This document shows, piece by piece, positions 4,001 through 54,200 of a DNA stretch of 64,000 bases; within the stretch, counting starts at the first letter, position 1, and each line of letters starts with the position of its first letter. Source of the DNA: Lytechinus pictus (Eukaryota). The notes beneath the pieces are model-generated. The model had not been told where the DNA came from and ran no database searches. It saw only the letters and a program-made list of their open reading frames with translations. A program made the position numbers and the translations under genes. Where the stretch lies: assembly GCF_037042905.1 (NCBI RefSeq), contig NC_087251.1, positions 28,584,001 through 28,648,000 on the forward strand, in the 5' to 3' direction.

Positions 4001-7000
4001 TGAAGTGAGTCTTATATGATATTGACAAGTGAATACTCTTTCTCTTTTGCCTATTAAATGTGTTACAGGGTTTTGAGTAGGTCCTTTGGGACAGGCCTCT
4101 CTACTATCATGTCTTGAATAATGTAAATACATTTCTTTACCCATCTTTTCCTACATGTTTCCAACTTCAACCTTAATGTACCATACGTAGTAGAAGGATA
4201 ATGATCTGATCAAATGCCACAAAGGTCATTTTATACCTGAAAATAGCTTGGTAACCAAATAATAGTTTGGAGGATTCCACTTCAAACTTGGTATGCATGG
4301 GAGTGCAGGGGGTGTTTCACAAAGATTTAAGTATGACTTAGAGTCTCACTTAAATGTTGACACATACATTATATGCAACATGCAATCTTATTGATCCATA
4401 CGCAGTAGTGCGCATCCTCTTGGCGTGATCTGACCAGTGCAGTGATGTCTTTTACATGCAACTAGGCATTTAAGTGCAACTCTAAGTCATACTGAAATCT
4501 TTGTGAAACACCCCCTAATGATCTGACAAATTCGGGGGTCATAATATCAAAGGTCACAGAGGTCAATATTTGAAAAAATTAAGAAGTTGATGTGTATATT
4601 CTTGATCTGGAAGTCGCAGAGGCATTTTGAATGCTTGCATTTGATAATTCATGTAGTTAATGTTGAATCTTTCATTATTATCTGTCAGAGAAACACAACT
4701 ATTTTTCAAATCTTCCTTTCCAAATTCATTTTAAAAAATGATCCGATAAACCAGTTGCAGATAAAGAAAAGAGGCAAATTTTTTTACATGTTGCATGATG
4801 AATTTTGTTTCAGGCATTCCAACGTAAGGTTCATGAAAACCTCACCCAACTAGAGATGCTGAATAAGCAATACCGTCGTCTAGCAAGAGAGGGCAGAACA
4901 GATGGTGCTAATCAACTCAAGGGTCTTGTCCACACTGCCAATGATAGGTAAGAACATGCTCATTAATTCATAGTGTAAAAGAAACGTTGACTTCTTGAGG
5001 CACAATTTCTTATCCCACCGCTGCCACCGTATATTGAAAGGAATCCCTAACTTCTGGAAGCATGTTAAAATCTGAACTGACTGACAAAGAAGTTATCAGT
5101 TTATGAACTACAGTTTTGAAAAAAATGAAGCATTTAAGATGCAATCCTTAAATGCTTTAAAAAGAAAACAACAATGCTTCATTAGAAGTAATCAGAAATG
5201 ACAGTCTTTTTCTCCCCCACAATCTTGTTCTCTTTATTTAGACAAAATCAGAACCAACTGCAGATTAGCTAGCCAAACAGAGTAAAGCATGAGATGATAT
5301 CAAATTAGTGAAGGGTCTACTTAGATTTGTAATTTTCATGCTGGACATAAATGTTATAAATGTTTGTTTTTCAGATGGGATGCTTTAGCAAGAAGGTGCT
5401 GCAGCGTTTTAAGACGTCTTCGTTCACAGCAAAGTTTGAGAGACGAGTTCGAAGGGACGAGAGAGAGTATGGTAGTATGGCTGACAGAGATGGACCTCCA
5501 GCTGACCAACATAGAACACTTCTCACAGTCGGATATCTCTACCAAAACAAAACAAATGAAAGTAAGTCATAAGACTTCCACATTTTTGAGAATCACAAAG
5601 CTTTGGTGATCAGTTTGATGTCTTTTCAGTTGCTTACTTGTTCACGGGTTATTAACCCCAATTAGGCACTCCACAATCATTATTGTGACTGTAGCAGAGC
5701 TGCTGCTAGTGCCTCAGCATTTCAAGGAAGGTTATTCCAGTTGAGTACACATTAAAGGACAAGTCCACCCCAACAAAAAATTGATTTGAATAAAAAGAGA
5801 AAAATCCAACAAGCATAACACGGAAAATTTCATCAAAATCAGATGTAAAATAAGAAAGTTGTGACATTTTTAAGTTTCGCTTAATCAAAACAGTTATATG
5901 CACATCCTGGTTGGTATGCAAATGAGAAGACTGATGACGTCATCCACTCACTATTTCTTTTGTATTTTATTATATGAGATATGAAATATTCTAATTATCT
6001 CCTCATTGTCAAGTGAAACTGATTAATTTCTCCCTGAACATGTGGAATTAGCATTGTTTAATACTATATGGTTCAGTCAAGTCAGTCCCAATGGTCAAAT
6101 CTATAAAAAAATGAAATATTGTATAATTCAAACAATAAAAAACAAACGAAATAGTGAGTGATTGACATCGACTGAGTCATTTGCATGTCACTGAGTTGTG
6201 CATATCACTGGTTTGTGATAAATAAGCGAAACTTTAAAATGCTATAACTTTCTTATTTTACATCCAATTTTGATGAAATTTTCAGTGTTATGCTAGTTTG
6301 ATTTTTCTCTACTTATTCAAATCAACATTTTGCTGGGGTGGACTTGACCTTTAACCAAACCAAGGTTGAGTGTGGTAAATGTAGATATATAATCATGTTG
6401 CTTGTTCCATTCTATTAGGCATTCCAACATGAGATTGAACTGAACCAGTCTAGACTGGATGAGATCGATGGGTATGCCCATAACCTGATGCAGCGATGTG
6501 ATGCCAACGATGCTGTTCAGATACAGGAAGAGATGGATGATCTTAGAGGCTATGCCGATGAGGTCTTTGCCAGAGTCAGCAAATTCCAGAGGAAGCTGGA
6601 GAGGATTACAGCCACTGAGGTAATTATCACACTTTTGAAGTGAAAAATATCATGTTATCAGCACAATGTATTTGACATCCTGGAGTAGGTAAACTGCCTA
6701 GTTGTCTTTTGTCAACTCATCCACTCATCACATGGTCTACCTTCATTTAGTCTAATTCCATCCATCAACATTACATCTAATAACCTTTTGGTCCAATAAT
6801 CACTTCGTCTAATCACCAGTTCGTCTATGACCATTTCATCTAATAACCAGTTGGTCTAATAACCATTTTCTTCTCATTTATTTCGCCCAATTAACACTTA
6901 TCCAATTATACCAAATGATTTATGGACTAAATGGATGGTGGACCAACTGGTTATTAGACAAAATGTTGAGTGGACGAAATGGCAATTAGACCATGTGGAT

Positions 7001-17670: not shown

Positions 17671-18082
17671 GGCCCGAATTCACAAAGGTGGTTTTGAAAA
17701 CCCACGGTTGAATCCATGGTTTATGCAGATTTCCTGTATAAATTACGCTTAATTTAGAGTGTATCGGGCGCGCGTATAAAAAATGTCCAATGCTGATGCG
17801 TGCTTTTGTCACAGTGCGCCAAATTGATGCCTGTTACCATGGTTAGATACGCTATTTTATTCATGAGTCCACTTTTTGAAGAGTGAACTCATGAATAAAA
17901 TAGCGTGGATAACCATGGCAACAGGCGTCAATTTGGCGCACTGACAAAAGCGCGCATCAGCATTGGACATTTTTTATACACGCGCCTGATACGCTCTAAA
18001 TTAAGCGTAATTTATACAGGAAATCTGCATAAACCATGGATTCAACAGTGGGTTTTCAAAACCACCTTTGTGAATTCGGGCC
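17671..18082. mobile_element. Near-perfect 412-bp palindromic MITE (foldback)
   Basis: ggcccgaattcacaaaggtgg...ccacctttgtgaattcgggcc with ~200-bp arms; TAT on both flanks; mirror ORFs 17609-17812(-) and 17905-18111(+) in the track. Confidence 0.9.
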
Positions 18083-24435: not shown

Positions 24436-25492
24436 TGTTACACCCACAAATGTAATAATCGCCCACAAATGTAATAACACTTTACCCACAAATGTAATAA
24501 TTTCATCCACAAATGTTATAATGCACTTTATCCACAAATGTAATAATTTTTGATCGCCCACAACTGTAATAATGACTTTACCCACAAATGTAATAAATTT
24601 GAAGGGATTTTTGGCGAATCCGTTCTAAACTAAAATCCTATAGTAATACGTTCATAAAGCACAAAAGTGCAAAGTCTTTTTTCCAGACCCGGTTGTTTCA
24701 AAAATTATAATATAAGTCCAAAGTCTTTTTTCCAGACACGGTTGTTAAAAAATTATAACATAAGTCCAGTCTTTTTTCCAGAGCCGGTTATTAAAAAAAT
24801 TATAATATAAGTCCAAACTAAGATACGATAATTTTTAAGATCTATAGCAAAAAATCAAGCACATGGACCCATGTTAATTTTTGCATATTTGGAATATTCA
24901 GGTGCTAAAGTATATATATGCAAAGTATGGTGAAAATGACGTATAAGTTAAAACTACAACAAAAACATTTATTCCACCAGTTTTAATTAACTGGGTCTGG
25001 AGAAAAGACTAAGCTCGATTTTCATTTTTATTCCACTGGAATATCATTATCGTATCTTAGTTTAGACTTATATCATAATTTTTATAATAACCGTTTCTGG
25101 AAAAAAAACTTTGGACTTATATTATGATTTTTTTTAATAACCGGGTCTGGAAAAAAAGACTTTGGACTTGTATTATAATTTTTGAAACAACCGGGTCTGG
25201 AAAAAGACTTTGGACTTATATTATAATTTTTGAATTAACCGGGTCTGGAAAAAAGACTGCACTTTTGTGCTATATGAACGCATTACTATAGGATTTTAGT
25301 TTAGAACGGATTCGCCGAAAATCCCTTCAAATTTATTACATTTGAGGGTAAAGTCATTATTACATTTGTGGGCGATCAAAAATTATTACATTTGTGGGTA
25401 AAGTGCATTATTACATTTGTGGGTGAAATTATTACATTTGTGGGTAAAGTGTTATTACATTTGTGGGCGTTATTAAATTTGTGGGTGTAACA
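24436..25492. mobile_element. Foldback DNA element with TGT...ACA termini and tandem-repeat arms
   Basis: TGTTACACCCACAAAT...ATTTGTGGGTGTAACA; ~7 CCCACAAATGTAATAA units per arm plus 3-5 TTTTTCCAGACCCGGTT units; C-runs on both flanks. Confidence 0.88.
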
Positions 25493-26943: not shown

Positions 26944-29900
26944 GTGAGAAAAAAAAAGGATTTTGTAAAGATCTATTCTTAATTTTAACTTAAAGGAGAA
27001 TGAAACCCTTGAAACCAGCTGAATCCATATCAAAGAGAAAAATCAAAGAAACATATTGTTGAAAGTTTGAGGAAGATTGATTGAATAATAAGAAAGTTAT
27101 GAGCATTCGAATATTGAGATCACTAGTGCCATGTAGATCCTCCCAACGACAATGCGACCAAGATCTGTGATATCACACACGTACAACTCCCTCATTACTT
27201 TAGTACTTATTTCACTTATATTCTCACTTTTATAGAGTCTATCACAAGGTGAGGTGTTCTCTTTATGAGATGACAAGTACAGAGGTTCGTACAACATTAT
27301 ATCATTGATGAATCGTTTGTCATATGATTAGAATGAGCAAAAAGAGATGTTTTGGGGTATATTTTCAGTGTCCAAATGGGAGAGTTGTACGTGTGTGACA
27401 TCACAGATCTTGGTCGCATTGCCAATGGGAGGATCTCCATAGCATTAGTGATCTCGACATTCAAATGCTCATAACTCTTTTATTGCTAGTCCTATTTTAC
27501 TCAAAGTTTTGTTGATCTTATTCTTTGATTTTTCTGCTTTCACAAAAGCTAACTTGCTCCAAGAGTTTCATTCTCCTTTAAGTCAGCGTCAGACAAATTA
27601 CAAAATCGCATGAATGAGGAGGGGGGGGGGGGATTAATGAGTTTTTGCATTTTGTTCCAGCCTCACCCAGGCCAAGCGAGTGATATTGTTTGTTAGATCC
27701 ATACTAAATTAGTATAGTTAATAACATTGGTACTTCTTGGTAGACTAAATTATATAACTCACTGTGCGATATGAAAATAGCACTTTTAATAAATTTTATT
27801 TTATGGCTATGCACATAAAAGTCATAAAGAAAAGAAGATGAAAAAGAGTTGCAAATGGACTAATGTCATAATTTTGGCCTGGTAGGTGTTTCATAAAGCT
27901 GTACGTATTAAGTTAAGAGCAACTTTAAGAATGACTGGTGATCCTTTCTTTCGCACTAAAATAATCACCAATGAACATCATTTACCACAAGAAAGGACCA
28001 CCACTGGCACCAGTCGTTGTTAAAGGGCCTGGCAACTGACAAATCATGGAGAAATTGAATCAATACGAAATTTGCAAAAGGCCAATTGACTTGCATAATT
28101 TAATCCGTCCGTCATGAGCGTCCGTCGGACTAATGCGATAAAATTCGGACAGCACACGATGGTTATTTACTTCGGGTCGTCGCAGTTCTAGCTTCCAACA
28201 ATCCCAATTCCTAGACTCATAGCAGGTCTCTTGATTGCTAAAGCAAAATAAATAACCTCTGTGGAGTTACATGTTTCAAAGTGAAAACATGCAGTTTACT
28301 TCTGGTTGGTTAGTCTACTAACTATTGCTCTCCTAAGATTTAGACCTCCCAGACACGCTGGCGTCTATTACGTAACACCCCAGGCATGCAGTCGAGTGAA
28401 AAACTTGAATCCCTTCTCTGTTTTTTTTAGATTAGCCTTGATTTCCCCATGATTTGTCAATGTAAAGTCGCTTTAAAGTCACTCTTAAATTATGAACAAC
28501 TTTATGAAATAGCACCCTGGTGCACATTTATTACAACAGCAAAATCAAATCAATATTTTGCATTTTGTCTAGATCTGTTGATTTGACATGTGTGGAGATG
28601 GGTTAGATAGATCCCATCTTAATATTAATTAGTGTTATTATCATTAGTATTAAATATATTGTTGGCCCAGCTCTACATTTTTGTCTATTTCCTTTTGTGA
28701 AGCATCCAAATGCCGCTTAATTTAGAATTTTTCAGAATCATCGTAATGCTAATGAAGACTAATTTCATGTATTAATGGACACAATCATATTTCAATTCAA
28801 ATCACTATTTTGTATTTTCTGATTATCAATTCAGGCTTATGAATTGTCAACATTGACTGGAACGCAGGTGATGTTGCTGGTTGCCAGTGAGACGGGGCAT
28901 GTCTACACATTTGCCACGCGCAAACTCCAACCTATGATCACGAGTGAAAGTGGAAAAGCCCTTATTCAAACCTGCCTCAATTCCCCTGACATCCCTTCAG
29001 ACAGTCATCACCACAGCCATAACCCAGATCAGCGTATGTGTGCCACTGGCTTTGAAGAGACTGATCTATCATATCAAGTTAGTGACGAGGAAGCTCTCAG
29101 TGGAAAGGTAAACAAACTTTTCTCTTATTTTTATAATCATCTTAAAGTGTAAAAACAACTTTTGTGTGGGGGTTTACATCTATGTGTTACTGCTTTCTGA
29201 TATTTTATCCTATTTTAAAGGCCAATCCCACTCCAAGTTGATATCAAGACAGAGAGAGATGGGGAGTTGGGTTGGGAAAACTCTAAACAAGCATACACAT
29301 GAAGCACTGACATTTTCTACAATTTGACTGTAAAATTAATTAACACTTCATTTTTTTCTAGTTTCTTATTGTAATAACAAAAATGCTCGACTGTTCCTGT
29401 AAAGGGGTACTTAATGCTGAAGAAACTTTTTTGAACAGATAAAAAAAAGAAATCAGACAAACAAAACACTGACAATTTGATCAAAATCAGATGAGGGGTA
29501 ACAAATTTATGACATTTTAAAAGATTTGCATTAGTTTGGTGAAACAGTTAGATTATGCATGGCTTCATGAATATTTAATGAGCCAACTGAAGATATCATA
29601 TCCCCATTTGTTCTTTTGTAGTTTATTGTGTTAAAGGACAAGTCCACCCCAACAAAAAGTTCATTTGAATAAAAAGAGCAAAAATCAAACATGAATAACA
29701 TTGAAAATTTCATCAAAATCGCATGTAAAATAAGAAAGTTATGGCATTTTAAAGTTTCGCTTTATTTCACAAAATAGTTATATGAACATTCCGGTCAGTA
29801 TGCAAATGAGGGGACTGATGACATCACTCACTCACTATTTCTTTTGTATTCTATTATATGAAATACAAAATATTCTAATTTTCTCCTCATTGTCATGTGA

Positions 29901-32900
29901 AACAAAGTTTCATTTCTCCCTGAACAAGTGGAATTACCATTGTTTAACATTTTATGGTTCAGTTAAGTTGGTCCTTATTGTCAAATCTGTAAAAAATGAA
30001 ATATTGTATAATTCAAACAATAAAAAACAAAAGAAATAGTGAGGGACATGACATCAATTCTCTCATTTGTGCATATAACTATTTGGTGAAAAATAAGCAA
30101 AACTTTAGAATGTTGTATTTTTCTTATTTTACATCCAATTTTGATGAAATTTTCAGTATTATGCTCGTCTGATTTTTTTCTATTTATTAAATTCAACATT
30201 TTACTGGGGTGGACTTGACCTTTAAATTGGTGTATTTTTTCAAATTTTGTCCCCAAGATTAAAAAAAAATTGAGTAACAATTTATTTGATGCATTAGATA
30301 TTCATTGAGCACTGCAACTTTAATTTTGTAAGGTTGACATAATTATACACTAATGTATGAAAATAGGAAATAACTATGATTTCCTGTAATAGAATAAGAA
30401 AAAGGAAAGTGGGAATGTGACATCATCAGCCCACCTATTTATGCATATAACTGTTTTCACAAAATATTGCTAAATTTTGAAATTCAATACATGTAACTTC
30501 ATTATTTCTTACCAGATTTTGGTGAAATTTTCAGCTTTTTGCTCTGTGAGATTACTCTATTTATTAAGCTTTAAATTATTTTCAGCCCAGAGTACCCCCT
30601 TAAACATGGGGATACATTACTTCAGGGTCCATGATATTTGTGATATTATAAAAAGCCTTTTTAAATCGAATAATTTGATATTCTAATAAATGAATAAATG
30701 TTAGTTAGTGTATCACCTTTGGCTAGTATACAAATAGCGAATATAGGCATGAGTGCGATGGTGCAAGAGTTTGCATAAGGTGAAAGAAAGATGCTCTATT
30801 CAACGAGGCATTAGCCGAGTCAAATAGAGTGTCTCCTTTTTTCACCAAATGTGAAATGTCACACCGTTGCACAAGTAAGAATATTTGCTATTTGTGTTGT
30901 ACAACGCCTCAGAAGTTAGCGAAAAGTTGAACAACAATTTTTTTTCCTTAGTAAATCTATGAAAATAAGAAAGAAAATTTTGACAGCAAAAGGAAAATCC
31001 TTTCAAACGCGCACTGATCTGCAGCAACAATTGATGTGCATTTCAGCCAGTAAAACGGCCCTGCGTTTATTGCATTTACGTACTAAGCGCATGCAATTGT
31101 TGAATCATATTTTCATAGCGACGTCACCTTTTCCTGACCCGTGCAAGGGTACATGTACATTATGGATGGTAAATTTTGGACGGTACAAATGTTTGACATT
31201 CAGCCTCTCATTTTCTAAGAAGGCATTGTACAATACATGCTCTCATCTTTTTGTTCCTTTTTTCACGTCTTGTCTTTATCTTTATCCCTCCCCTTTCTTT
31301 GTTTCTATTCCTCTTGGTTTTTATAATACTTTCTCTTTATAAGTATGTTTTTGTACTATTGTAGGACTCTGCATACTACATGTATAGACTTGTGCAGATT
31401 TAAAATGATCTGTTTGATGAATTTTGTTTGCAGACTTCTTGTGAGTCAGCTTTAGTCAAGGATAAAAAATCTGTTTAACTTATTGATATGCATTGCAGAC
31501 AAGTTAAATTCACATGAGTGAAATCAAAATTTTAAGGTTGTACTTTAAATGAAAAATTAACAAGAGAAGTAAAAAGTCTTTTTGATTTAGCATGCATTTT
31601 ATTATTATTTTCTCATTCTTTCAAATAGCTTTGCTGCCATGGTGAACTACAGTAATATATCTAAGTATATATAAAAATGTTAATTACCATTATTTTTTAA
31701 TAACATTTGCATTTTTCTTAATTAATAAATATTTAGACCTTGCTTAGTATAAAATCCTTCCAAACGTGTGACTGTCACTATTCCAAGATTAATGACCCCC
31801 CCCCAAAAAAAAAAAATCACAATTAAGATTACATGTACAAAAAAGGAAAAAATTTGATCCTTACATGTACATCATAAATTCACATATTTGCATACATGTA
31901 AATGTACTGTACAACTTATTTACTGTCCTTGCCAGAATGATGCAAATGAGACAAAATGCACTTGAGCACATTCATTTATCAAATTTATATAAGAAATAAA
32001 GTAATCAAATTCAACACAAACAATGATGGTTCTATTTGAATTCCTCCATATTATATCACATATTGAATGAAATAGCATATAAGATAAGGATATTCTTTTT
32101 ATAATTGTTCTGTTAGTTAAACATCAATTTTGAGACATATTAAGCTTGAGCAGTGCCACTGCCCCTTTTTTGAAGGGGGGTCCTTTCCTTATATTGCCAG
32201 TTGTATGAATTCAGAATCTCTGAGGATTCTTTAAATAAACCAATCAAGGTGGCCTTCTTTATGTCAGGGAGACCGCGGAGATATGGGGAACTTTTTTTAT
32301 CGGAAAGAATCTTTGTAACTTTTTTAATATTATATCAAGCTAGCTCATGATCATAATATGTGCTATCGAATCAATATCATGTAGTATTTAGTGATACCAT
32401 GACATTTTGCTATTTCGTGTAATTATGATTTTTGAAAAAGTTCAATTTGGGATAACTTGGGAAACACGGGGTAAAATGGGACATTAAGAAATCATTAAAT
32501 TTTGCACAAGGAGAACTTACACGTGCTGGGGAGAAATGGGACAGCATGGGAGTATTGTTTCCCATTTCTCCCCCTTGGTAACAAAAAAAAATGAAAATGG
32601 CGGCCCCTTTGTCGAACCTGTCTAATATCAAGCAATTTTGTTTTCAGAAGATTGCACACATACAGTACTGAGTTACCAGCTACATGTAGCATAATCAAGG
32701 ATATACCAGATGTAGTAGAAAAAAAAAATGTATCAAAAAAGGGTTTGAAAAATTATTTTGATCATTTTAACTTAATACCTGTTCTGTGTAATGGCTGATA
32801 TCTGTTGTTATCTGTTCCTAGGCACACCTTTTTACTGAAGTGATGTAACTGGTTTGCTGATTGGCTGAGTATTTTTCAAGTTATAAGAGTGTCCAATTTC

Positions 32901-35900
32901 TCTCCGTGTCCCAGTTCTCCCCTATCTCCGCTACTTTTTTGTCGCTGTTTTCAAGAACTATCCCAAGATGAGTTAAGTTGCAAGAGAACATTTTGAGATA
33001 AATGTGTTTAAACTTAAAAAAAAAAGACAACGTACATCTTAGGATTAAAAGATACAAAATAATTTGAGTACATGTACAATTTGGGAAGAATCAAGTGAGA
33101 CTTAATTTGTGACATTAGCATTAAAATATCAAAATAAATATTTTTTTTTTATCATGGAGATTTGCCTCTTCGGGCACTTCATCCTCTGATGTACACATAG
33201 GTTTCTCCTTTTCACATGTATAGATTTCTTTTGTCATGAGACCCCTAATTATTTCATTGAAAACTACCAGTTTCATAACACTGAAACTGTGTAGTATCGG
33301 TGAAACAATTGACATCAGCATCTCAGGGCATGCATAGGCACCATAGACAAAAAAGTATTTTTCATGCCAGATAAGGTTGACTATCATCCATTGACATGTG
33401 TATTGGGTTGGCATGTGCCTTACATGGAGCATGACCCTTTGACCTCCCATCTCCTTGTTTGGATTGTGCCATACCTTATAGGTCCTCTCTTCCCAATTAT
33501 GGCAGGCATGGCATGCGCCTGGCACCAGGTCATGTCCATCAACTGCTTTAGGCACAAGCCACATCTACCATATATGGCATAATGGCATGCAGAGATATTG
33601 TCCCTAATATTGAACAGATGACTTTGTAGCTTGGAGATAACTTTGTAAAAAGTTCTATCAATATCCGAAGAGAAAGTGGAATCTATAACCTACTAATAAA
33701 TGGTCCTTTGTACGTACATGTACATGTAGTGCGTTACTCTAAAAATTACAATTACTGTATGCTATATTATATGCCCTATTATTTTTAGGCTCTAGTCTAA
33801 ATGGCATATTTCAAATTTGCTAATTTTTTTTAATTCCCTTTATTTCATTTACTGGTATGCATTTGGAAGTTCAATATGAGTGGTACAGTAGTCCTGCACT
33901 TTATGTGTGTTTATTATAGCCTCCATGTACACATAATGATATACATGTATGGTAGTTTATTACATAAATAATAATTTTATTACCCCCCCCCATGAACAAT
34001 TTTTCAAAGAAAGTTCTATTGTTGCAGACAAGAATGTGTGAGTCTGACCGTGGTGTTCTTTTTCTTATAAAAGAACAACAATTTCCTACAGACATTTCCT
34101 GTTTAAAATGATCAATTTAAGATACAAAATGAAACAGCAAAATTAGCTGACATGTAAGCACTGAACATTGATCTGTGAAATGACAAATGGAGTTGCAGTT
34201 TGGCATACAGGGGTGGTATTCTGGAACATTGTCATAAATTTTGTCATTTCTATCCGAGAAGTGACACTGCTATTCTGAATGTCACAAATCGGTATTCTGA
34301 ATTCCTTAATAGTTATACAAAGAGACAGAAAGTTGATAAGGATTTTTTTAGGAGAGAGAAAAAAAAGAGGAATCAGTATGTATGGTCTAACTACTTGTAG
34401 CATGAAAAAATGCTTTTGGAAATAGTCATTGATGATGAGTGGATCGTAGTGAAAGGAAACCAAAACCCAAGATGAGAAGCAAACTTATTGGAAAGAGTAA
34501 AATGAGAGGAACAATGTAAAACAAGTTTCATAAAAATCGGTTATAGAATAAGCGAGTTATGGAAGTTTGAAAAGTTTTGTTGTACTTTGAAGCATGTTTG
34601 CCAATTTGAGGATTCCCTTTGTGGACAACCCTCCATTTGTTTTGTACACATATTTTCAGATTTTCCTCTTTATTTTACATATTTCACAACATCTCCTCCT
34701 GACCTTGACATGTGTGGTGTGAATTATATTTTCCCATGTCATATGTTATGCTCAGAATGAGGCAATATGCAATTTTAAAGATAATACCTAATAGGGAAAA
34801 TCTGAAAAATTATGTACAAAACAAATGGAGAGTTGTCCACAAAATTATAAGGCATGTTTTCCAATTTGAAGATCCCCATAGAAAGAACAACAAGACTTTT
34901 TAAGCATTCAAAACTTGCTATTTCACAACCGATTTTGATGAAACTTTTTTTAGATTGTTCCTCTCATTTTACTCTTTCCAATAAGATTGCTTCTCATCTT
35001 GGGTTTTAGTTCCTTTAAACGACAATCTATTCTAAACAATATCATTACATGTACATGTATGTCCTTGACATACTTTGGCATGTTATCGGGATAATACGGT
35101 TCTGAAAGAAATGACAAAATTTATGACTGCTATGTAATTTAAAAATGTAATAACGAGAAATGGTATAGAAATTCCAGGGATTGGCGATGTATGATGGATG
35201 TGGTTTGGTGACTGTGACTTCATTCAGTATTTCCTTGTTTTGTTAGACAGGTAACTGTTTTCTTTCATGGTATTTTGTGTTTTTATTGAACTTTTCCCTT
35301 CTATTTGTTGAAATTCCATTATCAGAGATCAGAAAATTTCCCCAGTGCTATGAAAAACTTTATAGGTTCTTGTGTTATTGTTTTTACCCATGGGACTTTG
35401 AAGATTACAAAATTTAAAGTTATGTGGAATGACCAGTATACACCCTAATAAAACCTCTGTCAGACCTCATAAGAGCACAACACTAAGTTTAAATCCCCAT
35501 TGTTTTGTCAAAACACATGCTTTCATCAAATTTTCCAATTTAGTTCATAAAAAGTACAAAAGTCTGTGGAGGTTATGTATTTATATTGGGGCCCATGTAC
35601 TTAAAAAAAAAACTAGCAATCCCTTTATATTGGAAAAATTATGGTGTGCAAATAATTCAAATTTCAAAACATATCCCATAATTTTGAAATGTGAAAAAAC
35701 CATATTAAGGGTGGGGGAATACATTTGTGGGAAATGGACACAGGATTAATGAATTTATGAATTACAGTCATGCAGGTAAGGTAACAATCTACAGCTTGGA
35801 TTGGTGAAGTACATGAATGGCTAATGGAGACAGGATGGAAAACACCTACATGTATTGTGTAAGCAAGACAAAAGTCTTGGAATCATTATTTCCGTATTGG

Positions 35901-46000: not shown

Positions 46001-49000
46001 CATGTTCCTCAGGGAGTGATGTATGTTGCATAATTTGCTAGCATAATCATTTTGTCTTAATTTTGTTTTAATGCATTTACTATAAAAAAAATTTCATCCA
46101 GCTGCAGGTAACAGCAATGCATTAGCCACGCCTCTAATGTACCATGCTCCACAGGGAGTGGTGTATGCTGCATCACCAGCAGGCACTGTCAATACCCTAC
46201 CAGATGGATTCTTCTTTAACTATCAAACGGCTGCACACCTACATCCTACATCCCATGGTAAGTACACAATTAACATCTATATTTATAAACCATTCATTAG
46301 CATGTTGAAATAGTCTAGTAAAGACACAATAAAGCCTAGTGATCAGCTACTAACTTGAATATCTGCTTAAAATTAACCAATCTTGTCTAAGGCTTATTAT
46401 ATCTATCTAGGTATCTTAAATATTGACATTTATATGACACCTAGATTGATCCTTGTCATTTGATTGGTTGTTTGATATCGATCATATAGCCCATTTTACA
46501 ATGACGTCATCAACCGTGCAATTTTGGATCCATACGATTTTGTCCATTGCATGCGCACACTGAGACTGCAGTCACTACAAGTAAAACCACTTGTGTTTGC
46601 AGCGCGCATGCTGTATTTACGCGACAATCAAAAGACCAAGCTCGCATATTTTGCATCAAAATTCATAAAATTCATATGAAAAAGAATCTCTTTTGGTGTT
46701 ATATAAACCAAATAATGAATGTTATTTCCAATCGTGCAATGGACAGAATACTTCCATTCATTGCTCATGAAGTATTCTGTCCATTTCACTCATAAACATT
46801 CATTATTTGTATACTATTCAGTACCATGATCACATCATGTGGAAGTCACAAACCACAAAATCATTGACAAAGTTGATGTGTGATGGTTTTTAAATGATTC
46901 CATATTCTTAAGAGTAGATAATTTTTCTGAATTTCTGTTAACTGATAAACCAAATAGCAATGCAAAAAACAAACAAACATACAAACTGCAGTTGTTAACG
47001 TTTCGTTTTTATATGTGATAAACAATATCAAGTCATTTTGACTATATAGTATAACACATTGAATGTGATTTCAGTCTCTGGATATGTGGTAGGTTTTTTA
47101 CAGTGGGAATTGATAATTACAAGCTTGGTAATTCTTCATGCACTTTTTGAAGGAAAAAACAGAAACCTAAAAGAAAAGACACCTAGATTTAAAGGAAAAG
47201 TCCACCTCAACAAAAAGTTGATTTGAAAAAAAGAGAAAAATCCATCAAGCAAAACACTGAAATTTAAAATGTCATAACTTTCTTATTTTACATCCGATTT
47301 CATCAAAATCGGATGTAAAATAAGAAAGTTATGACATTTAAAAGTTTCGCTTAATTTCACAAAACAGTTATATGCACATCCTGGTCGGTATGCAAATGAG
47401 GAGACTGATGACATCACCCACTCACTAATTCTTTTGTATTTTATTATATGAAATACGAAATATTCTAATTTTCTCCTCCTTGTCAAGTGAAACAAAGTTT
47501 TATTTCTCCCTGAACATGTGGAATTACCATTATTTTAACAGTTTATGGCAAAGTTAAGTTGGTCCTTATTGTCAAATTTGTAAAAATTGAAATATTGTAT
47601 TATTCAAACAATAAAAAACAAAAGAAATAGTGAGTGATGGACATCATCGACTCTCTCATTTGCATATCGCTGAGTTGTGCATTTAACTGTTTTGTAAAAA
47701 ATAAACTTTAAAATGTCATAACTTTCTTATTTTTCATCCGATTTCGAATAAATTTGCAGCATTACGTTTGTTTGATTTTTCTCTATCGATTCAAATCAAC
47801 AATTTTCTGAGGTGGACTTTACTTTTAAACCTGAAGATATAGCATTGACTTTGATCTCTTGAAGAGAAGAATATCTCATGTATTGTGACATGTGTAGACA
47901 GGCATAAATATGTCAAGCTTTGAAAACGTCTACCAGTATTTAATGAATCCAAAGGAATATATTAAGTCTGATATATTAAGTCTAATAAATACAGACTCCA
48001 TTCTGATATAATTTGCAAGTTGAACTTACTTGACTAATCTCAAACTGGTGTCTTTGTGTTCAGAAACGTTGCATTTCTTGGATGAAATGCATCAGATCCA
48101 ATCTTCAAAAGATCTATTACATGTAAGTTTCTGGTTTATAAATACTCTAATAGAACAGACTTTAGGGATCTGATTACTGACTTTCATTCATCCTTTTCAG
48201 TCCCAAATTGCATTATGAACATAGAAGCCTGAATTCATAAATGAGGTTTAAACCACTTGTGTCAAACCCAAGAGTAGATTTATTAACCATGCACACATTG
48301 ACTCTGATAACATATATTTTCTTGAGATGCTCTGTGCATATATCAATTTTCTTGGACAATATAAAAGGATTTAAAATCCCTTCTGTGGTTTGAGTTTCAA
48401 CCTCATTTTGAATTTGGGCCAAAGTGAATGTAACTCAATTAACATACATGCATGTTTATGTGATCCCCTTGTTAGCAAACGTAGAAGGAAAGAACACGAC
48501 GACAGCCACAAGAAATGTACCAATGCCGCCTATTCAGCTGCATGTCGCATGCCAACAGGTGGGACATTACCACTTTAATCACAACTATATCCTTTCTTCT
48601 ATTATTGTCTATACTCTAACCCAAGATCTCTCACTGTCCTTGTTCACTTTCTTGTTGGTAAGGACTGCAATACTAACAACCTGTACTGACCGCACAGAAA
48701 TATTGTTAGCACTAACAATTGCGCTAACAGAGGCCCTGTTACAATTGGTTATGTGGCAGCAATGCCTAATGTTACAACAATGCATTACTGACACATTGAA
48801 ATAAATGTTTTGACTTCACAGTCCGAAAGATGTGACTGGGTTTACTGTTAGTGTTCTGTTAGGCTAACAACGTTTCTGTGCGGCCAGCATTGATTTTACA
48901 AATTAGTAAAAAGTGCACAAGAATAGAGTAATGTTCATAACATTGGTTGTCATCGATGATGGGTTGCCATTCACTGACAATGTCAATGAAAGCCTAAATT

Positions 49001-50315
49001 TTTATGGGCTTAGAAGCATTGTAACTATGGTAACTCATCAAATGACAACTTCTCAGTGATGACAACATTGATGGAAATGTGCTGATGTACATATCGTTAG
49101 ACATATGATCAGGATGGCTTTGTGCAGGTAGATAAATTTCCTCTTATTAAGAAGCATCTGAATGCAGTGTTTCTATTTTTATTTTTTTTATTTATTTATT
49201 TTTTAAATCTAGGTTAAACTAGGAAATTCAATCCCACTAATCAAAATACCAGAGACACATTGCATCAAAGTTGCCATTATGGTAACTTTGCCATGCAATG
49301 GTTACTTGCATGGAATTCTTGATTTTGATTGACTGTTGACCATTGTTATCATGGTAGTTACCATTGGATGAAAAGTTGCCATAATAGTAACTTTATGCAA
49401 CAGGGCCCTAGAGAACTTTACTATAGATTTATGAAAAACTCACTTGGACCAGTTGCCAAAATCCATCTGGTGGCCGATTTATTGCCCATGTAGTAATGAT
49501 CGTTAAAATTTCATTTCATTCAACACCTTTTTTTTTGCTGTATATTTGCTGTGATTACATTTTCTTTCTTTGATTATTTTTTATGATCATATTTTCTGTT
49601 GGTCGATTTGATTAATCCCTGTATTCTTGAGTGTGTCTTACTCCTGGCTGAAGTACATATTAATATCATGTTATATTGTTTGGTTGCTTTGGAAAGAGCT
49701 AGGGGATCCAGTTCTTGCAAATGTGGCACATCTTTTTCTTTGTGAGGATTTGAACCTTGTATCCACTTGACCACAACTCCTTGAAAGAGCGTTCATTTAG
49801 CATGGGTTGCAAGGTTTTGAATTGCAGCAAAATTAACTAACCTCATCACCACACTGTTATTGCAATTTCATCAAACCATATGGGCAATCTGGGAACATTA
49901 TGATGTGTGTATATTAAAGGGAGTTGTCTCATGATTCCATATTTTATTTTTGTCCATTTTTATTCTTATAAAATCACTTTTATCCCTTTTTCATTTGGAG
50001 AAATTTGTGCCTCATAAATAAGAATCTCTTTGGTATCTCTTGACAAAGTCATATGTTTCTAAAGCAATTTACTTATAAACTGCTGAATTTGTTTGTATGT
50101 ACAATGTGGTCTTTGTTTTTGCTAATGTCAGTATTTTATACATGTAATTCATCTTCTTCTCTATTCTTTGTTAAAAATTTTGATTCCCCTAGGTGACCAG
50201 CACACCAAGTGATAGACCTCTATCCATTCAGACATCAGCAAAAAGACCTGGGGATGATCTGTCAACTTCAGCAACTTCAGTTAAGATACCATCGTTAGAG
50301 GCCAAGCCATTATGA
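26629..50315 (+). CDS. SRF: Serum response factor (MADS-box transcription factor), ~492 aa, 9 coding exons
   Basis: Exons 26629-26943,28835-29107,41818-41890,42524-42691,43645-43762,44158-44327,46102-46257,48476-48558,50193-50315 = 1479 nt in frame; MADS+SAM GRVKIKMEFIENKLRRYTTFSKRKTGIMKK|AYELSTLTGTQVMLLVASETGHVYTFATRKLQPMITSESGKALIQTCLN is SRF-type; start codon uncertain (26449/26629/26632/26638). Confidence 0.96.
26990..27581. mobile_element. Kolobok/T2-like MITE in SRF intron 1
   Basis: TTAA-AGGAGAATGAAAC...GTTTCATTCTCCT-TTAA with internal inverted arms; 46 nt downstream of the exon 1 donor. Confidence 0.85.
27880..28520. mobile_element. MITE (gtgtttcataaag...ctttatgaaatagcac) with a probable nested insertion (~28022-28465)
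   Basis: Outer inverted ends; inner inverted pair tgacaaatcatggagaaat / atttccccatgatttgtca. Confidence 0.5.
28835..29107 (+). CDS. SRF: SRF exon 2 (rest of MADS box, SAM domain, DQRMCATGFEETDLSY)
   Basis: attcag| acceptor, |gtaaac donor, 273 nt. Confidence 0.96.
29399..30603. mobile_element. Older Kolobok/T2-like MITE interrupted by a family A copy (29631-30225)
   Basis: Outer ends taaaggggtac...gtacccccttaa; inner element with its own TTAA TSD and TIRs. Confidence 0.75.
32272..32934. mobile_element. Probable non-autonomous DNA transposon
   Basis: Imperfect TIR gcggagatatggggaact / agttctcccctatctccgc. Confidence 0.5.
33367..33577. promoter_or_regulatory. Intronic CArG cluster (candidate SRF enhancer)
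   Basis: CCAATTATGG 33493-33502 and CCATATATGG 33568-33577 (canonical); CCAGATAAGG 33367-33376 and CCTTACATGG 33418-33427 (1 mismatch). Confidence 0.65.
34450..35018. mobile_element. Kolobok/T2-like MITE (family C)
   Basis: aaggaaaccaaaacccaagatgagaagcaa...ttgcttctcatcttgggttttagttcct-ttaa; related partial copy at 62847-63273. Confidence 0.8.
38427..38464. promoter_or_regulatory. MCAT + CRE + GC-box module
   Basis: TGGAATG 38427-38433, ATGACGTCAT 38440-38449, GGGGCGGGG 38456-38464. Confidence 0.45.
39257..39266. promoter_or_regulatory. Canonical CArG box
   Basis: CCATATATGG within the palindrome TCCATATATGGA. Confidence 0.5.
40485..40609. promoter_or_regulatory. Cluster of four one-mismatch CArG boxes around an MCAT site
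   Basis: CCATCTATGG 40485, CCATTGATGG 40519, GCATATATGG 40583, CATTCC 40593, GCATATAAGG 40600. Confidence 0.5.
41337..41597 (-). mobile_element. tRNA-derived SINE
   Basis: Minus strand reads GTGGAGCGTCGTGGCCCAGTGG (A box)...GGTTCAAATCCC (B box) and ends in an (ATT)n tail; related 3' fragment at ~54477-54558. Confidence 0.8.
41818..41890 (+). CDS. SRF: SRF exon 3 (EGRTMFQVTQVPGAG...)
   Basis: Long polypyrimidine tract + tttag|, |gtaaaa donor, phase 0->1. Confidence 0.82.
42524..42691 (+). CDS. SRF: SRF exon 4 (GHTFPMTTYLP..., Ser/Thr-rich)
   Basis: gtgtag| acceptor, phase 1; donor after 42691 or 42697; resembles vertebrate FPITNYL motif. Confidence 0.85.
43431..43588. mobile_element. Short MITE (ggggc..tttcataaag / ctttatgaaa..ggccc type); relatives at ~49250-49410 and ~52900-53053
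   Basis: Inverted ends and shared ttaccatg/gattgg core. Confidence 0.55.
43645..43762 (+). CDS. SRF: SRF exon 5 (Gln-rich)
   Basis: caacag| acceptor, |gtaaat donor, phase 1->2. Confidence 0.82.
44158..44327 (+). CDS. SRF: SRF exon 6 (LPQG..., poly-Ala/Thr)
   Basis: tattag| acceptor, |gtgagt donor, phase 2->1. Confidence 0.85.
45849..46185 (+). repeat. ~145-bp tandem triplication of the SRF intron 6/exon 7 boundary
   Basis: gggagtg.tgtatg.tgcat recurs at ~45868, ~46012, ~46154; ttcatccagctgcaggtaaca recurs with AG at 45954 and 46101. Confidence 0.85.
46102..46257 (+). CDS. SRF: SRF exon 7 (PLMYHAPQGVVYAASP...DGFFFN)
   Basis: atccag| acceptor (alternative ctgcag| 6 nt later), |gtaagt donor, phase 1->1; resembles vertebrate MMYPSPHAVMYA. 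Confidence 0.85.
46420..46815. repeat. Probable non-autonomous repeat with terminal hairpin
   Basis: tttatatgacacc / ggtgttatataaa inverted pair plus hairpin caaataatgaatgtt...ggacagaatacttc...gaagtattctgtcc...aacattcattatttg. Confidence 0.5.
47189..47828. mobile_element. Kolobok/T2-like MITE (family A) with an internal inverted duplication
   Basis: TTAA flanks, TIR aaagtccacctc / gaggtggacttt, body matches 5752-6354. Confidence 0.85.
48476..48558 (+). CDS. SRF: SRF exon 8 (ANVEGK...VPMPPIQLHVACQQ)
   Basis: tgttag| acceptor, CAG|gtggga donor, phase 1->0 bridges exon 7 to the long frame of the last exon. Confidence 0.7.
50193..50315 (+). CDS. SRF: SRF terminal coding exon (VTSTPSDRP...EAKPL*)
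   Basis: ccctag| acceptor, 41 codons to TGA 50313-50315. Confidence 0.72.
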   Translation: MTSTPSDRPLSIQTSAKRPGDDLSTSATSVKIPSLEAKPL

Positions 50316-51060
50316 TACAAAGCTGCCCTTCCCTGAGAAATGACTTTCTATTAAAATCCTTCTTTACTATAAACTCAACTGAGACCTGAAATCAATTTCT
50401 TGCATGTGGACATGTCTATTTTATAATGAAGAGATGTTATATTGAATGATGAGAGTTCGCACTGTAGCTTTAAGGTAGTATGGTAGTAAATTTGATATCA
50501 ATTGAATATTTATGCCTATGCACAACGTAGGTGGTTGTTAGATGCAATAATGCTTTTTGGGTCGTCCCTCTGCCCTACTGTACCATTTTTGTTTTGCTGA
50601 TAACTCAAGGACTGTTAGACAGATCAATTTCAAACTTGGTATAATTATGCATAGGAGTGGCAATGATCTGATCAGTTTTTTGTGATATAAAAATTAAGGA
50701 GTCATTATTTACATTGATATATCTTGTTCTCAACATTGTTAGAGGGATCAAATTCAAATTTTGCTCATATATGCATGTTGGAGGGAAAACGATCTGATTA
50801 GATAACAAGGCCAAAGGTCACAGAGGTCATTATTTGCATATCTCAGAAGTGCTTCTGAACTGGCTACGGCAGAGTCTTCAATTTGACTGCAGTTTAGAAT
50901 CTATCTACCTGTAGTTTATTAACATTTTTTTCACCCATTGAAATATCTTTACGCTCCACCTAATTAGTAAATAGTTTTACGCTCCACCTTTAGATACATG
51001 TGCAATTGTTAACAACTGTTATACTCTCAATTTGAAATAAGTTAATATCCACTGCTTACA

Positions 51061-51228
51061 ACTGGGCGTTGTGGCGTGCGCCTGTAATCCAAGCTGTGGG
51101 AAGTTACAAATTGATGCAGAGTTTTGAGCCCTGGTCACGTCTTTCGGATGGTGACGTTAAAGGTCGGTCCCAGACGTAAATAATCATATCTGATTGATAC
51201 ACGTCTGACAAAACTCAAATACACACAC
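51061..51228 (+). mobile_element. SINE-like element with a 7SL RNA (Alu-domain)-like head
   Basis: ACTGGGCGTTGTGGCGTGCGCCTGTAATCCAAGCT resembles the 7SL 5' end; TTGAGCCC at the 7SL-equivalent offset; then GTCTTTCGGATGGTGACGTTAAA and an (AC)4 tail. Confidence 0.65.
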
Positions 51229-54200
51229 TTTTCAGGGACATGTATTTGGTAAATAAGTAATTTAATCTCAATTTAGTCATCTGTGAAGAAATTGTTACTG
51301 ATCAATTTGAGTGGAGCAGTTGCTATGAAGTTTTAGTTTTTCTGTCCTGATTCCTACGGGCAGTGATTAGATACATTTAAGTACAGATTCGATTCAATGA
51401 ATTCAGTTATTTCATGTGGATCCCATGACACAAAGGACTGCAATCAATCTCAAAATGTCAATGACCAATCAAAGGTCAATGTTGCTTGCCCATTTTGTTG
51501 ATATGATTGATCAGTAACCAAATATATTTTTTTCAAATCGACTTTTGATCACAACCATTTGTGTAATGGGTCCATGTAGTTTATACTACAGACAAATTCT
51601 ATCAAAACGTTGCAGTCATTTGATTCACCTAAGGCAGCACAACTACTACCTTTGCATTTTCTTAAATTAAAATTCACAAAATGTTTCTTGTATTCTGATT
51701 GGAAAAAAAAACTTTTTCCCCTGATACATCATGAAATTGTTTGTTTATCATGTTATTTTTTTTTTACTGAAAACATATATTGTGCATGCCAAGAATACTC
51801 ATATTTTTTAGATTGAAAAACTCTTTTGATTGATTGATTGATAAACTGTTATTGTGCAAGTAGCAAAAGTACTTGGGTCATTAGAAAAGAATGAGTTATT
51901 TTCTATATTATCATTCCAGTTGTAGTGCATGGTAAACAGTACTTATTAAATATACAGAAAAGACCAGCTTGGCATCCATGGTATTCTAGAGTTTGCTGAT
52001 ACAGATTACAGAGAGGACCATTCTTTCAAATATCTAACTGTCTGTCAGTGATAAGGTTAAAGCAACTATTCTATTTTTCTTTGAAAATTAGCTGGTGACA
52101 TTTGATTGGCCAGCGGCAAATATGTGATAGAAATTAAGCATTTGTTAATTAATGAAGAGCACTGTAAAACGGCACTCAGGGACGCGGTCATGCAGTTATG
52201 CAGTTGGACACTGCATATTCAAAGAGGCTCTTTGAATGGAGTATGAATTGAAATAGTAAGTCAGTGTCAAATATTATCAGCCATTCACAGAATTTAAAAG
52301 AACCTTAGAAAGTCATCCAAAAATGATTATATCCCTCTCAATTATACGGGATACCGGGGTAAATTAAAAAATTAACGAAAGTTTCTTGGCAATTGGTCTT
52401 TATTGATTGACATGTCCATTTAATGAGTATGTACTCCAATTGGAAATTGGAAATATTGGCTTTATAGGGTTTGGACATAATGCTGTCTGATGATTTTTAT
52501 TGACAAACAAATGTGTACGTTTTGAAATATTTCTTCAACTTAAATATAGATTTACATCTAGACAATGACAGAGGGCGTTAGCTGCTTTAAAGTTGGATGT
52601 GTTCAAATTAATTTTCCGACCATGTTTGATGTTTAATGGTAGTAGATGGTATCCATAGACAGTGCCTTAAAGATTGATGGTCAAATACCTATTGACTGTA
52701 CTGAAATAAGCTGACAGAATTCTTCTAGAATATGGTGGATGTTATATATCCTGGGCACATTGCAGAAAGAGTTGTGTTTAAAAAAAAAATTGAAGCGTAT
52801 ATATATATATCTCTCATACGCGCATTTCATTGGTTGAAAATCAAGTTGCGCTAGATTTTTGGACTTGATTTTGATTGCAAATCTTTCTGCAACAATTTTC
52901 TGGGCCGCATTGCATAAAAGTTACTATTATGGTAACTTTACCATCCTGTGGTAACTTGCATGGTATCCTTGAGTTTGATTGGTTGTCCAGCATCAATGCG
53001 ATGGTGGTTGCCATTGGATGACAATAATTGTAACTTTTATGGGATAGGGCCCTGGACTGTCAAATTTATTGTTGGGAATTTTATGAGGAGAGTTAGATTT
53101 ATTATGCTCCTAATTTTTGATGCTTTACATCACAATGGTGCTATATGTTAGAAAGAACAAATATTCATACATGTGTATGTAGACAAGTTTTATCACTATT
53201 TTTCTTACATCTGTAATTGTAATTTGAACTCGATGCTCATATTTTTGTTTATATTACTTTGCCACATGAATCAATAGACTTAGCATTTTCAAGAATTGCA
53301 AGATATATTTTCGTAATCTTATTTTGTGCAAAAATTTCCAGAAAAATTGTTTAAAATATTCAGAAGCAGAAAAGTTTAATTTCATTTGGATGTAATGGAG
53401 TTGGTAGCGTGTAACCTATGAAAATTATGGTGTTTTATGTGCATGTTTGTGCATAAATTATGTTGCTATTTGAAGTTACTTGTGGGGTACATTAGGCCTT
53501 ATTGTCTGAAATCGCTTTGAGATTACACTGGCTGATTTAAATGATAGTGGTGACTGCCACGAGATAGATAAAGATATGCCCCAACATTTGTGGACCCTAT
53601 CTATTCCATATCCTGAATTAGATTTTATCATATCAATTTGACTTGCAATATTACTATAATATTACTATACTAATATTACTATTAATATTTTTGTTTGGGG
53701 TTTTACGCCTCAGGAAATATAGTAATTCCCTGTTCAACCTGGGATAAGTAATTCCCCACTATACTTTCTCCAAGCCTGGTATATTTGCATACTGTGTAGT
53801 TCAGCAGTCCTTGCTTGCCCTCAGTTTTGACCAACAAATCAGAGACTTTGATAAAGGCCTGTTGGGTAATGTACAGTATACTCCTTAAAATAAATCCTAT
53901 GGATCAGCGGTTTCTTTAATGTGCAAATATACATGACTGTACATACATCAATGAGTAACTTCCGTGAATTGAAATGTACAGTATCTTTGTAAATATAGGA
54001 TTTATTTGTAAACTTTACTGCCATTAACTTATTTATGAAGATTTGTAACATTGATGCTTTAATATTGAAGTTGTTCCATGCCTTGTATTACGAATTAAGA
54101 CGTGTCTTACTTTTTCGATTTGTACAAATATACAATTTGAACTCTGTAATTTCTTGGCACAAAAAGTAAGATTAAGGACAGAGAAGTCTTTTTCGGCACT

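Follow-up and report, generated by a model that had tools for sequence, protein, structure and literature searches.

The sea urchin Lytechinus pictus carries a dispersed SINE family that, judged by its sequence, is a young and abundant non-autonomous non-LTR retrotransposon. A member copy downstream of the SRF stop codon, recognized as such by genome comparison, is almost certainly a SINE with a true 7SL head. The copy lies within the 64,000-nt stretch of DNA that was analyzed (the window), and its parts and surroundings are as follows.

50193..50315, +, last coding exon of SRF, coding for the C-terminal end seen in the closest SRF homologs
51058..51060, +, 3-nt flank with the same letters as the tail repeat, either microhomology or a minimal TSD
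51061..51228, +, 7SL-headed SINE copy, from ends common to genome-wide copies, tail count, and SRF context
51061..51104, +, head corresponding to the 5′ Alu domain of host 7SL (nt 1–45), from Rfam and alignment to the host 7SL gene L037
51061..51104, +, parts of the head: closing helix, helix 3, U-turn, and helix 4, stopping at the domain-closing strand
51066..51075, +, putative Pol III A box (7SL nt 6–15), placed by position after PMC7245038
51105..51120, +, spacer from head to B box
51121..51131, +, tRNA-type B box, decayed in this copy by two substitutions and intact in 65 of 81 copies
51138..51171, +, start of the Deu 5′ part (Inv/Nin part), ~34 nt, 26/34 to AmnSINE1 and to the tRNA-headed SINE L056
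51171..51207, +, 3′ stem-loop (stems of 7 bp and 6 bp on either side of a 3/4 internal loop, 4-nt terminal loop) like those ending host EN-RT-RNase H LINEs
51208..51228, +, A/C-rich spacer and (AC)4 tail, the tail length differing among copies

The closest SRF homologs (six hits) are those of Lytechinus variegatus (96%), Strongylocentrotus purpuratus (84%), and Diadema antillarum (79%), all labeled as sea urchins, which marks the host as an echinoid. Since the SRF stop codon lies in the exon at 50193–50315, the element begins 745 nt downstream in sense orientation, in agreement with the ~750 nt given in the preliminary description. A 14-nt direct repeat (50948–50961 and 50976–50989) was seen by eye ~70 nt upstream of the element, with no visible tie to its insertion. 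Elsewhere in the window lie long inverted-repeat, MITE-like elements of recurring families (5752–6354, 17671–18082, 24460–25469, 27036–27535, 29631–30225, 34437–35032, and 47189–47828).

Copy Number and Age

The preliminary description had suggested that the element might represent an independent SINE family joining a 7SL head to a Deu core. This is supported by high copy number, shared ends, a head taken from host 7SL, and a core from the Deu 5′ part. The search for copies covered 812 Mb in 368 contigs and gave 1,373 candidates; the 40 that were scored produced 48 matches, the best 40 of which are 96–100% identical and have nearly the same ends. Far from being single-copy, the element shares a 24-nt tail motif (at most two mismatches) with 1,543 genome positions (772 + 771), and the reversed control gave 0. 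Because older copies of ~70–90% identity are also present, this number is a floor for copy number. Members occur on both strands and on many contigs, some of them in tandem. The first 80 loci yielded 81 distinct copies of full length, and the alignment of these top hits, which are biased toward young copies, has a median identity of 98.8% to the majority sequence and a minimum of 91%. Subfamilies in this set are defined by shared indels, one junction is uniform throughout, and element length is 168–180 nt. Folding of the whole element is not unusual (z −0.51). In a word screen, 14 rows of one organism contain all 13 family words; six metagenome RNA rows had fewer than five words and were not used as evidence.

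SINEBase defines a SINE as interspersed, shorter than 1 kb, and present in at least 100 copies (PMC3531059), and with 168–180 nt and 1,543 tail matches the family falls within these limits. The same source further requires that a stretch of 60 nt or more be at least 60% identical to tRNA, 5S, or 7SL, with exceptions permitted on Pol III evidence; the family agrees with 7SL in 42 of 46 columns, but across only 44–45 nt.

Head-to-tail arrays of the SINE include one of six units, one of four units with the same short spacer between them, and several dimers (L007:810-1824, L029:961-1667, L039, L041–L044). A separate tandem array (G000:C18:3148587-3170684) has a ~1.7-kb period and 13 listed units, each containing part of the SINE tail, truncated at the 5′ end. 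An older subfamily is represented by copies (L031:877-1047, L031:1290-1460, L035:1294-1464, and L036:1315-1464) that lie ~35–40 bp upstream of three C10-clustered 7SL genes in the same orientation, and probably descend from one insertion that was copied along with the genes.

Origin of the Head

A scan of 50500–51800 against Rfam gave Metazoa_SRP as the best of nine matches at E ≤ 10, with 32.7 bits (E 1.9e-6), a score below the gathering score of 70. On another family copy, model positions 1–44 were matched. No tRNA is among the nine, and the better alignment to tRNA that had been named at the outset as the outcome contrary to a 7SL head did not occur. The 5′–3′ pairing that Rfam draws in the window copy was set aside, as it depends on private B-box changes of that copy.

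The host genome holds at least seven full 7SL genes (25 of 6,077 rough candidates scored). Aligned to one of them, L037, the 44-nt head has 42 identities, 1 mismatch, and 3 gaps, and with each of the six others found it has 39 identities. L037 is set apart from these six by a compensated change in the helix closing the 5′ domain, and the family carries both sides of it: 79 of 81 copies have the change at nt 3, and 73 have the partner hexamer. The 7SL similarity ends at the strand closing the 5′ domain. Past nt 45 the family is no nearer to 7SL than shuffles are (P 0.23–0.34), and element nt 111–168 reach a best local score of 14 against L037; the S domain, reported missing in the preliminary description, is indeed absent, and so is the 7SL 3′ part. 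The 7SL head proposed there is thus borne out by both Rfam and the host gene, and on these alignments the family head is nt 1–45 of the host's own 7SL RNA, nearest to L037.

The fold of the 5′ domain is largely preserved among the 81 copies, with helix 3 intact in 79, the U-turn motif in 77, the closing helix in 72, helix 4 in 77, and both tested loop–loop pairs in 75. These pairs are numbered after the human 7SL structure, and a third loop–loop pair of that structure is a G-U in most young family copies. Such intactness may reflect recent origin alone.

In six of the seven host 7SL genes (L031–L036), a canonical B-box-like motif closely follows the terminator, 17–41 nt past nt 299. In three of them the motif sits within a perfect T-arm-like hairpin, and ARAGORN calls no tRNA at any of the six. 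The motif is possibly an extragenic B box for 7SL transcription; the 100 nt downstream of L037 contain no such motif.

Relatives Without the 7SL Head

One scan of metagenome contigs with the core motif returned three loci (L123–L125) that are identical to the family at 74, 80, and 83 of 85 nt over core and tail. All three have a B-box-like motif at the same distance from the core as in the family, and two have an A-box-like motif upstream. None has the 7SL head, as their 7SL scores are at chance (P 0.73, 0.82, and 0.30), and no tRNA was called in them by Rfam. Since core and tail are shared by loci lacking the 7SL head, the family probably arose through a head swap, and there is good reason to believe that a 7SL head was placed on an older tRNA SINE. 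Comparable events have been proposed for hagfish SINE1, described as a chimera of a 7SL head on a tRNA SINE (PMC7245038), and for the heads of 5S-headed Deu-SINEs (PMC4758252). A tRNA-headed parent was sought in the host genome with two patterns, the first giving 0 matches and the second one unrelated-looking match, and none was present in the 318 kb examined. The near-identical core and tail of the three metagenome loci may point to horizontal spread of the parent.

Proposed Mobilization and Possible Role of the Head

In the proposed account, the 5′ 45 nt of host 7SL RNA would have replaced the front of an older tRNA-headed SINE. Transcription of a source copy by Pol III would be driven by the A box of 7SL together with the inherited B box and would end in a flanking T run. 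Folded as the 5′ Alu domain, the head of the transcript would bind SRP9/14 and carry the RNA to ribosomes, where the ORF2 protein of an I-group (Nimb-like) LINE would recognize the 3′ stem-loop. Insertion by target-primed reverse transcription would follow, with CA as a frequent site, TSDs short or missing, and some of the copies truncated at the 5′ end. Taken whole, this chain of head swap, Pol III transcription, SRP9/14 binding, and I-group LINE is probably the best explanation of the family.

The step from head to ribosome has a parallel in engineered Alu elements, in which a 46-nt 5′ domain binds SRP9/14, keeps ~86% of Alu activity, and suffices for Alu retrotransposition (PMC11760393). 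According to that study, the fragment has no B box of its own and cannot propagate further, and by analogy the family looks like a natural solution to this limit. That SRP9/14 use would matter for mobility is slightly favored. The main competing view, for which the chances are appreciable though below even, holds that the 7SL piece donated the A box only, with no role for SRP9/14 and with the LINE recognizing the tail unaided. It gains from the relatives that have the same core and tail and lack the 7SL head, and from the small indels of the family, which fall in the second loop. The tail is, moreover, a specific stem-loop, so that competition at the ribosome of the poly(A) type would not be needed. 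However, an A box ends near nt 15, yet the domain has been kept whole up to its closing strand, with its pairs intact in 72–79 of 81 copies, and hagfish SINE1 likewise retains the domain in combination with an RTE-type tail (PMC7245038).

The Internal Region

By sequence, an internal promoter is made up of the A box, placed by its 7SL position, and a canonical tRNA-type B box that is intact in 65 of 81 copies, where it starts at nt 61–73. The octamer at offset 64–71 of the window copy had been read both as a remnant of 7SL and as a decayed B box. The latter reading stands, the window copy having the canonical box with two substitutions, while the former does not, given the 65 copies with an intact box. 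The two substitutions gave the octamer its 7SL-like look and also create a T4 run at 51122–51125; internal T4 runs occur in six of the 81 copies, this one included, and the other 75 have none. With a spoiled B box and an internal T4, the window copy is probably silent for Pol III and not a source element.

The B box was probably inherited from a tRNA-headed parent rather than from 7SL, because the continuation of 7SL past the head is not significant. It is unlikely that the front half (nt 1 to ~85) comes entirely from 7SL, either with nt 46–90 diverged into a B box as in Alu or with nt 45 joined by deletion to a downstream motif. The B-box-like motifs downstream of six of the seven host 7SL genes would suit such an origin, as would the match of the spacer to one 7SL downstream flank. 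This match (P 0.013) was the best of seven candidate sources tested for the 23-nt spacer, ahead of the metagenome relative L125 (P 0.033), and it does not survive correction for seven tests. In addition, the collinear 7SL continuation is at chance (P 0.23–0.34; P 0.89), the nearest gene is the one without a downstream motif in 100 nt, and the spacing from B box to core equals that in the three metagenome loci. A spacer form longer by 7 nt is present in 33 of the 81 copies and in the majority of the older ones seen. A host tRNA-Arg gene was rejected as spacer donor: it scored 36 against a shuffle maximum of 35, but its B box had been the ground for choosing it, and P was 0.42 for the spacer by itself. 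A ~400-bp repeat in which a T run follows a tRNA-Arg-like head (L117–L119, L121, L122) is unrelated to the SINE core and tail; it makes up most of the first 100 of 408 pattern matches and often forms arrays with a ~1.6-kb period.

The preliminary description had noted a core resembling Deu/Nin. Such a core is present, but the match covers just ~34 nt of the Deu 5′ start. By eye, 26 of 34 nt agree with AmnSINE1, including a 13-nt exact run (PMC7245038, supplement Fig. S4), and 26 of 34 agree with a SINE of the same genome (L056:590-1050), a Deu-SINE of ordinary type that has a tRNA head and a (CAT)n tail and is probably akin to SINE2-3_SP. Deu parts reported in the literature measure 70 bp or more (PMC4824008), the length that also delimits the DeuSINE superfamily by its Deu/Nin domain, and what the family holds is an Inv-like remnant of the 5′ start only.

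Deu-like sequence also occurs in a host LINE family with intact 1233-aa frames (L092:130-500 and L103:130-500; G000:C15:1598273 and C2:41944699). Immediately past its stop codon lie a B-box-like motif, a stretch resembling CORE, and ~120 nt of Deu-like sequence, all ahead of its own 3′ hairpin. With a SINE core in its 3′ UTR, this LINE may have donated the Deu domain or captured it.

Candidate Partner LINEs

The (AC)4 tail described earlier is present and stands behind the A/C-rich spacer and the stem-loop. RNase H matches are common in the host genome (150 scored of 257 candidates), many of them in frames of 1,230–1,380 aa, and the downstream regions of 20 of the 150 loci were examined for LINE 3′ ends. 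The 3′ ends of several host LINE families follow the plan of the SINE, with two hairpin stems around a 3/4 internal loop and then an A/C-rich spacer and a microsatellite, and one hairpin-ended LINE (L116) has a 1269-aa ORF with endonuclease, RT, and RNase H. A covariance model (R1) was built, with the SINE excluded, from six host EN-RT-RNase H LINE 3′ ends that were chosen after the likeness had been seen. R1 ranked 51166–51228 of the window first, at 37.4 bits (rough E 3.5e-6), with the next of 16 listed matches at 15 bits. It also matches the three metagenome loci. Within the six LINE ends, 6 of 12 hairpin pairs change on both sides, as high a count being reached by 0 of 500 shuffles, and the best pairwise score between the SINE tail and a LINE end (L086, 36) just equals the maximum of 100 shuffles.

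A LINE with the same tail sequence was not found in tail-pattern searches of the genome, in one of which 100 of 328 matches were inspected. Matches considered as partner candidates were truncated, rearranged, or old copies of the SINE; 12 divergent hits were all copies or fragments of it, and a pair on C19 was an old copy split by a small inverted-repeat element. The partner is nonetheless likely to be a LINE of the I group (Nimb-like), a label that is inferred from domain order and by-eye likeness to bivalve Nimb tails.

A CR1/L2 LINE is an improbable partner. The short TSDs and the microsatellite tail of the family would suit such a partner. SINEs of S. purpuratus are also paired with CR1/L2 in a published table (PMC3747384). 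The tail, however, fits the covarying stem-loop of RNase H-bearing LINEs, the group whose 3′ ends were compared, and the tRNA-headed Deu-SINE of the same genome has a different tail, which R1 does not match.

Traces of Insertion

The window copy had been described as lacking a clear TSD, which holds apart from the 3-nt overlap of its flank with the tail. TSDs were studied in 56 non-tandem copies, 25 copies from 11 loci having been dropped as tandem or adjacent to 7SL genes; the tail was mis-located in 3 of the 56. TSDs of at least 5 bp occur in 10 of 56, against 2.4 expected from shuffled flank pairs, and most copies have 2–4 bp. The left flank ends in CA in 22 of the 56. By eye, 20 of 28 listed tail matches without the core at its fixed spacing are 5′-truncated at varied points. 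Short TSDs, 5′ truncation, and a variable tail are marks consistent with target-primed reverse transcription. Two host repeats have also received independent insertions whose positions within the repeat differ slightly (L050, L054, L083, L109, L112, and L113 in one; L009, L047, and L078 in the other), which may reflect target preference or the abundance of these repeats.

That there is no self-propagating family at all, only repeated chimeric 7SL retrocopies, chance likeness, or human Alu contamination, could draw on the Rfam score under the gathering cut-off and on a weak score of the 52-nt mir-1268 model, but it is refuted by the single uniform junction and shared subfamily indels of 81 copies on many contigs, a head nearest to a host paralog, insertions inside other host repeats (e.g., L017 and L079), and the older copies.

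Comparison With Known SINEs

A 5′ part from 7SL RNA defines SINE1, and the family has one. The closest counterpart is hagfish SINE1-1_EBu, which likewise has a 7SL head on an older tRNA SINE through chimera formation, uses a non-L1 LINE through a shared tail, ends in a microsatellite, is young, and has thousands of copies (PMC7245038). It differs in its build: ~96 nt of the 7SL 5′ part are joined by the 7SL 3′ end, the B box is that of 7SL, the tail is bipartite and of RTE type, and TSDs measure ~17 bp (PMC7245038). The sea urchin family has 45 nt of 7SL without the 3′ part; its B box is of tRNA type, its Deu sequence is a remnant, its tail is of I-group type, and its TSDs are mostly 0–6 bp. 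Alu, FLAM, and B1 of Euarchontoglires and Urop of the shrew mole also start at 7SL nt 1 and include the 5′ Alu domain with the A box, but they join 7SL 5′ and 3′ parts after a ~183-nt central deletion, end in poly(A), and use L1 (PMC13023118). The build shared by Alu, B1, Urop, and Ebu1-1 (7SL 5′ and 3′ parts joined, with the 7SL B box) is not that of the family, which has no 7SL 3′ part and no 7SL-like region past nt 45. Its (AC)n tail behind a stem-loop likewise differs from the poly(A)/L1 type of Alu, B1, and Urop. A tree-shrew unit of possibly dual 7SL/tRNA origin (PMC13023118) may serve by analogy as a partial precedent for a hybrid head.

In extent of 7SL sequence, the family resembles the minimal Alu domains SA46 and AY46 (46 nt, against 44–47 nt in the family). 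These are engineered, have an external promoter, use L1, carry poly(A), and lack a B box (PMC11760393), while the family has a B box from elsewhere. In AmnSINE1, SINE3, the Saccostrea LP SINE, and SINE2-3_SP, as in the family, Deu/Inv starts after a tRNA-type B box and the head has been replaced on an existing body and tail. Their heads, however, come from 5S rRNA, a LINE 5′ UTR, or tRNA, and their Deu parts measure 70–330 bp against ~34 nt (PMC4758252; PMC3747384; PMC4824008). Bivalve Nimb-tailed SINEs share with the family, by eye, the stem-loop, A/C-rich spacer, and microsatellite, and also form tandem arrays, but they have tRNA heads with V or Meta cores (PMC11481361).

In a 2026 account, 7SL-derived SINEs are recorded from no animals other than supraprimates, hagfish, and shrew moles, and each of them has both 7SL ends (PMC13023118); a 2024 account lists them from mammals and hagfish only (PMC10886601). 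The preliminary description had named Euarchontoglires and hagfish, both correctly, and had omitted Urop of the shrew mole (PMC13023118). No 7SL SINE of an invertebrate was met in the literature searched, the scope of which excluded subscription journals, Repbase, Dfam, and the SINEBase supplement. In its 5′ domain only, borrowed B box, Deu remnant, and I-group-type tail, the build of the family is different from those of the known SINE1 lineages.

Implications

It is a tentative proposal, one with somewhat less than an even chance of being right, that the family is the first 7SL-headed SINE outside vertebrates and a natural counterpart of the minimal 46-nt Alu domain, in which a tRNA SINE would have gained only an SRP9/14-binding module, kept its B box, and, once targeted to ribosomes, captured the RT of a stringent I-group LINE. 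If so, the strategy of Alu would be a module that can move between elements and needs neither L1 nor poly(A) nor the 7SL 3′ strand, and relatives from other marine genomes whose core and tail are almost the same would provide a matched control with a tRNA head. The family adds an invertebrate origin of 7SL SINEs with a different build, and it makes a standing question testable, namely whether a 7SL head is kept for its promoter or for SRP9/14-mediated access to the ribosome. Because head, B box, and tail are of separate origin and headless relatives exist, each part is swappable on its own. The ~1,500 young insertions can also serve as echinoid markers.
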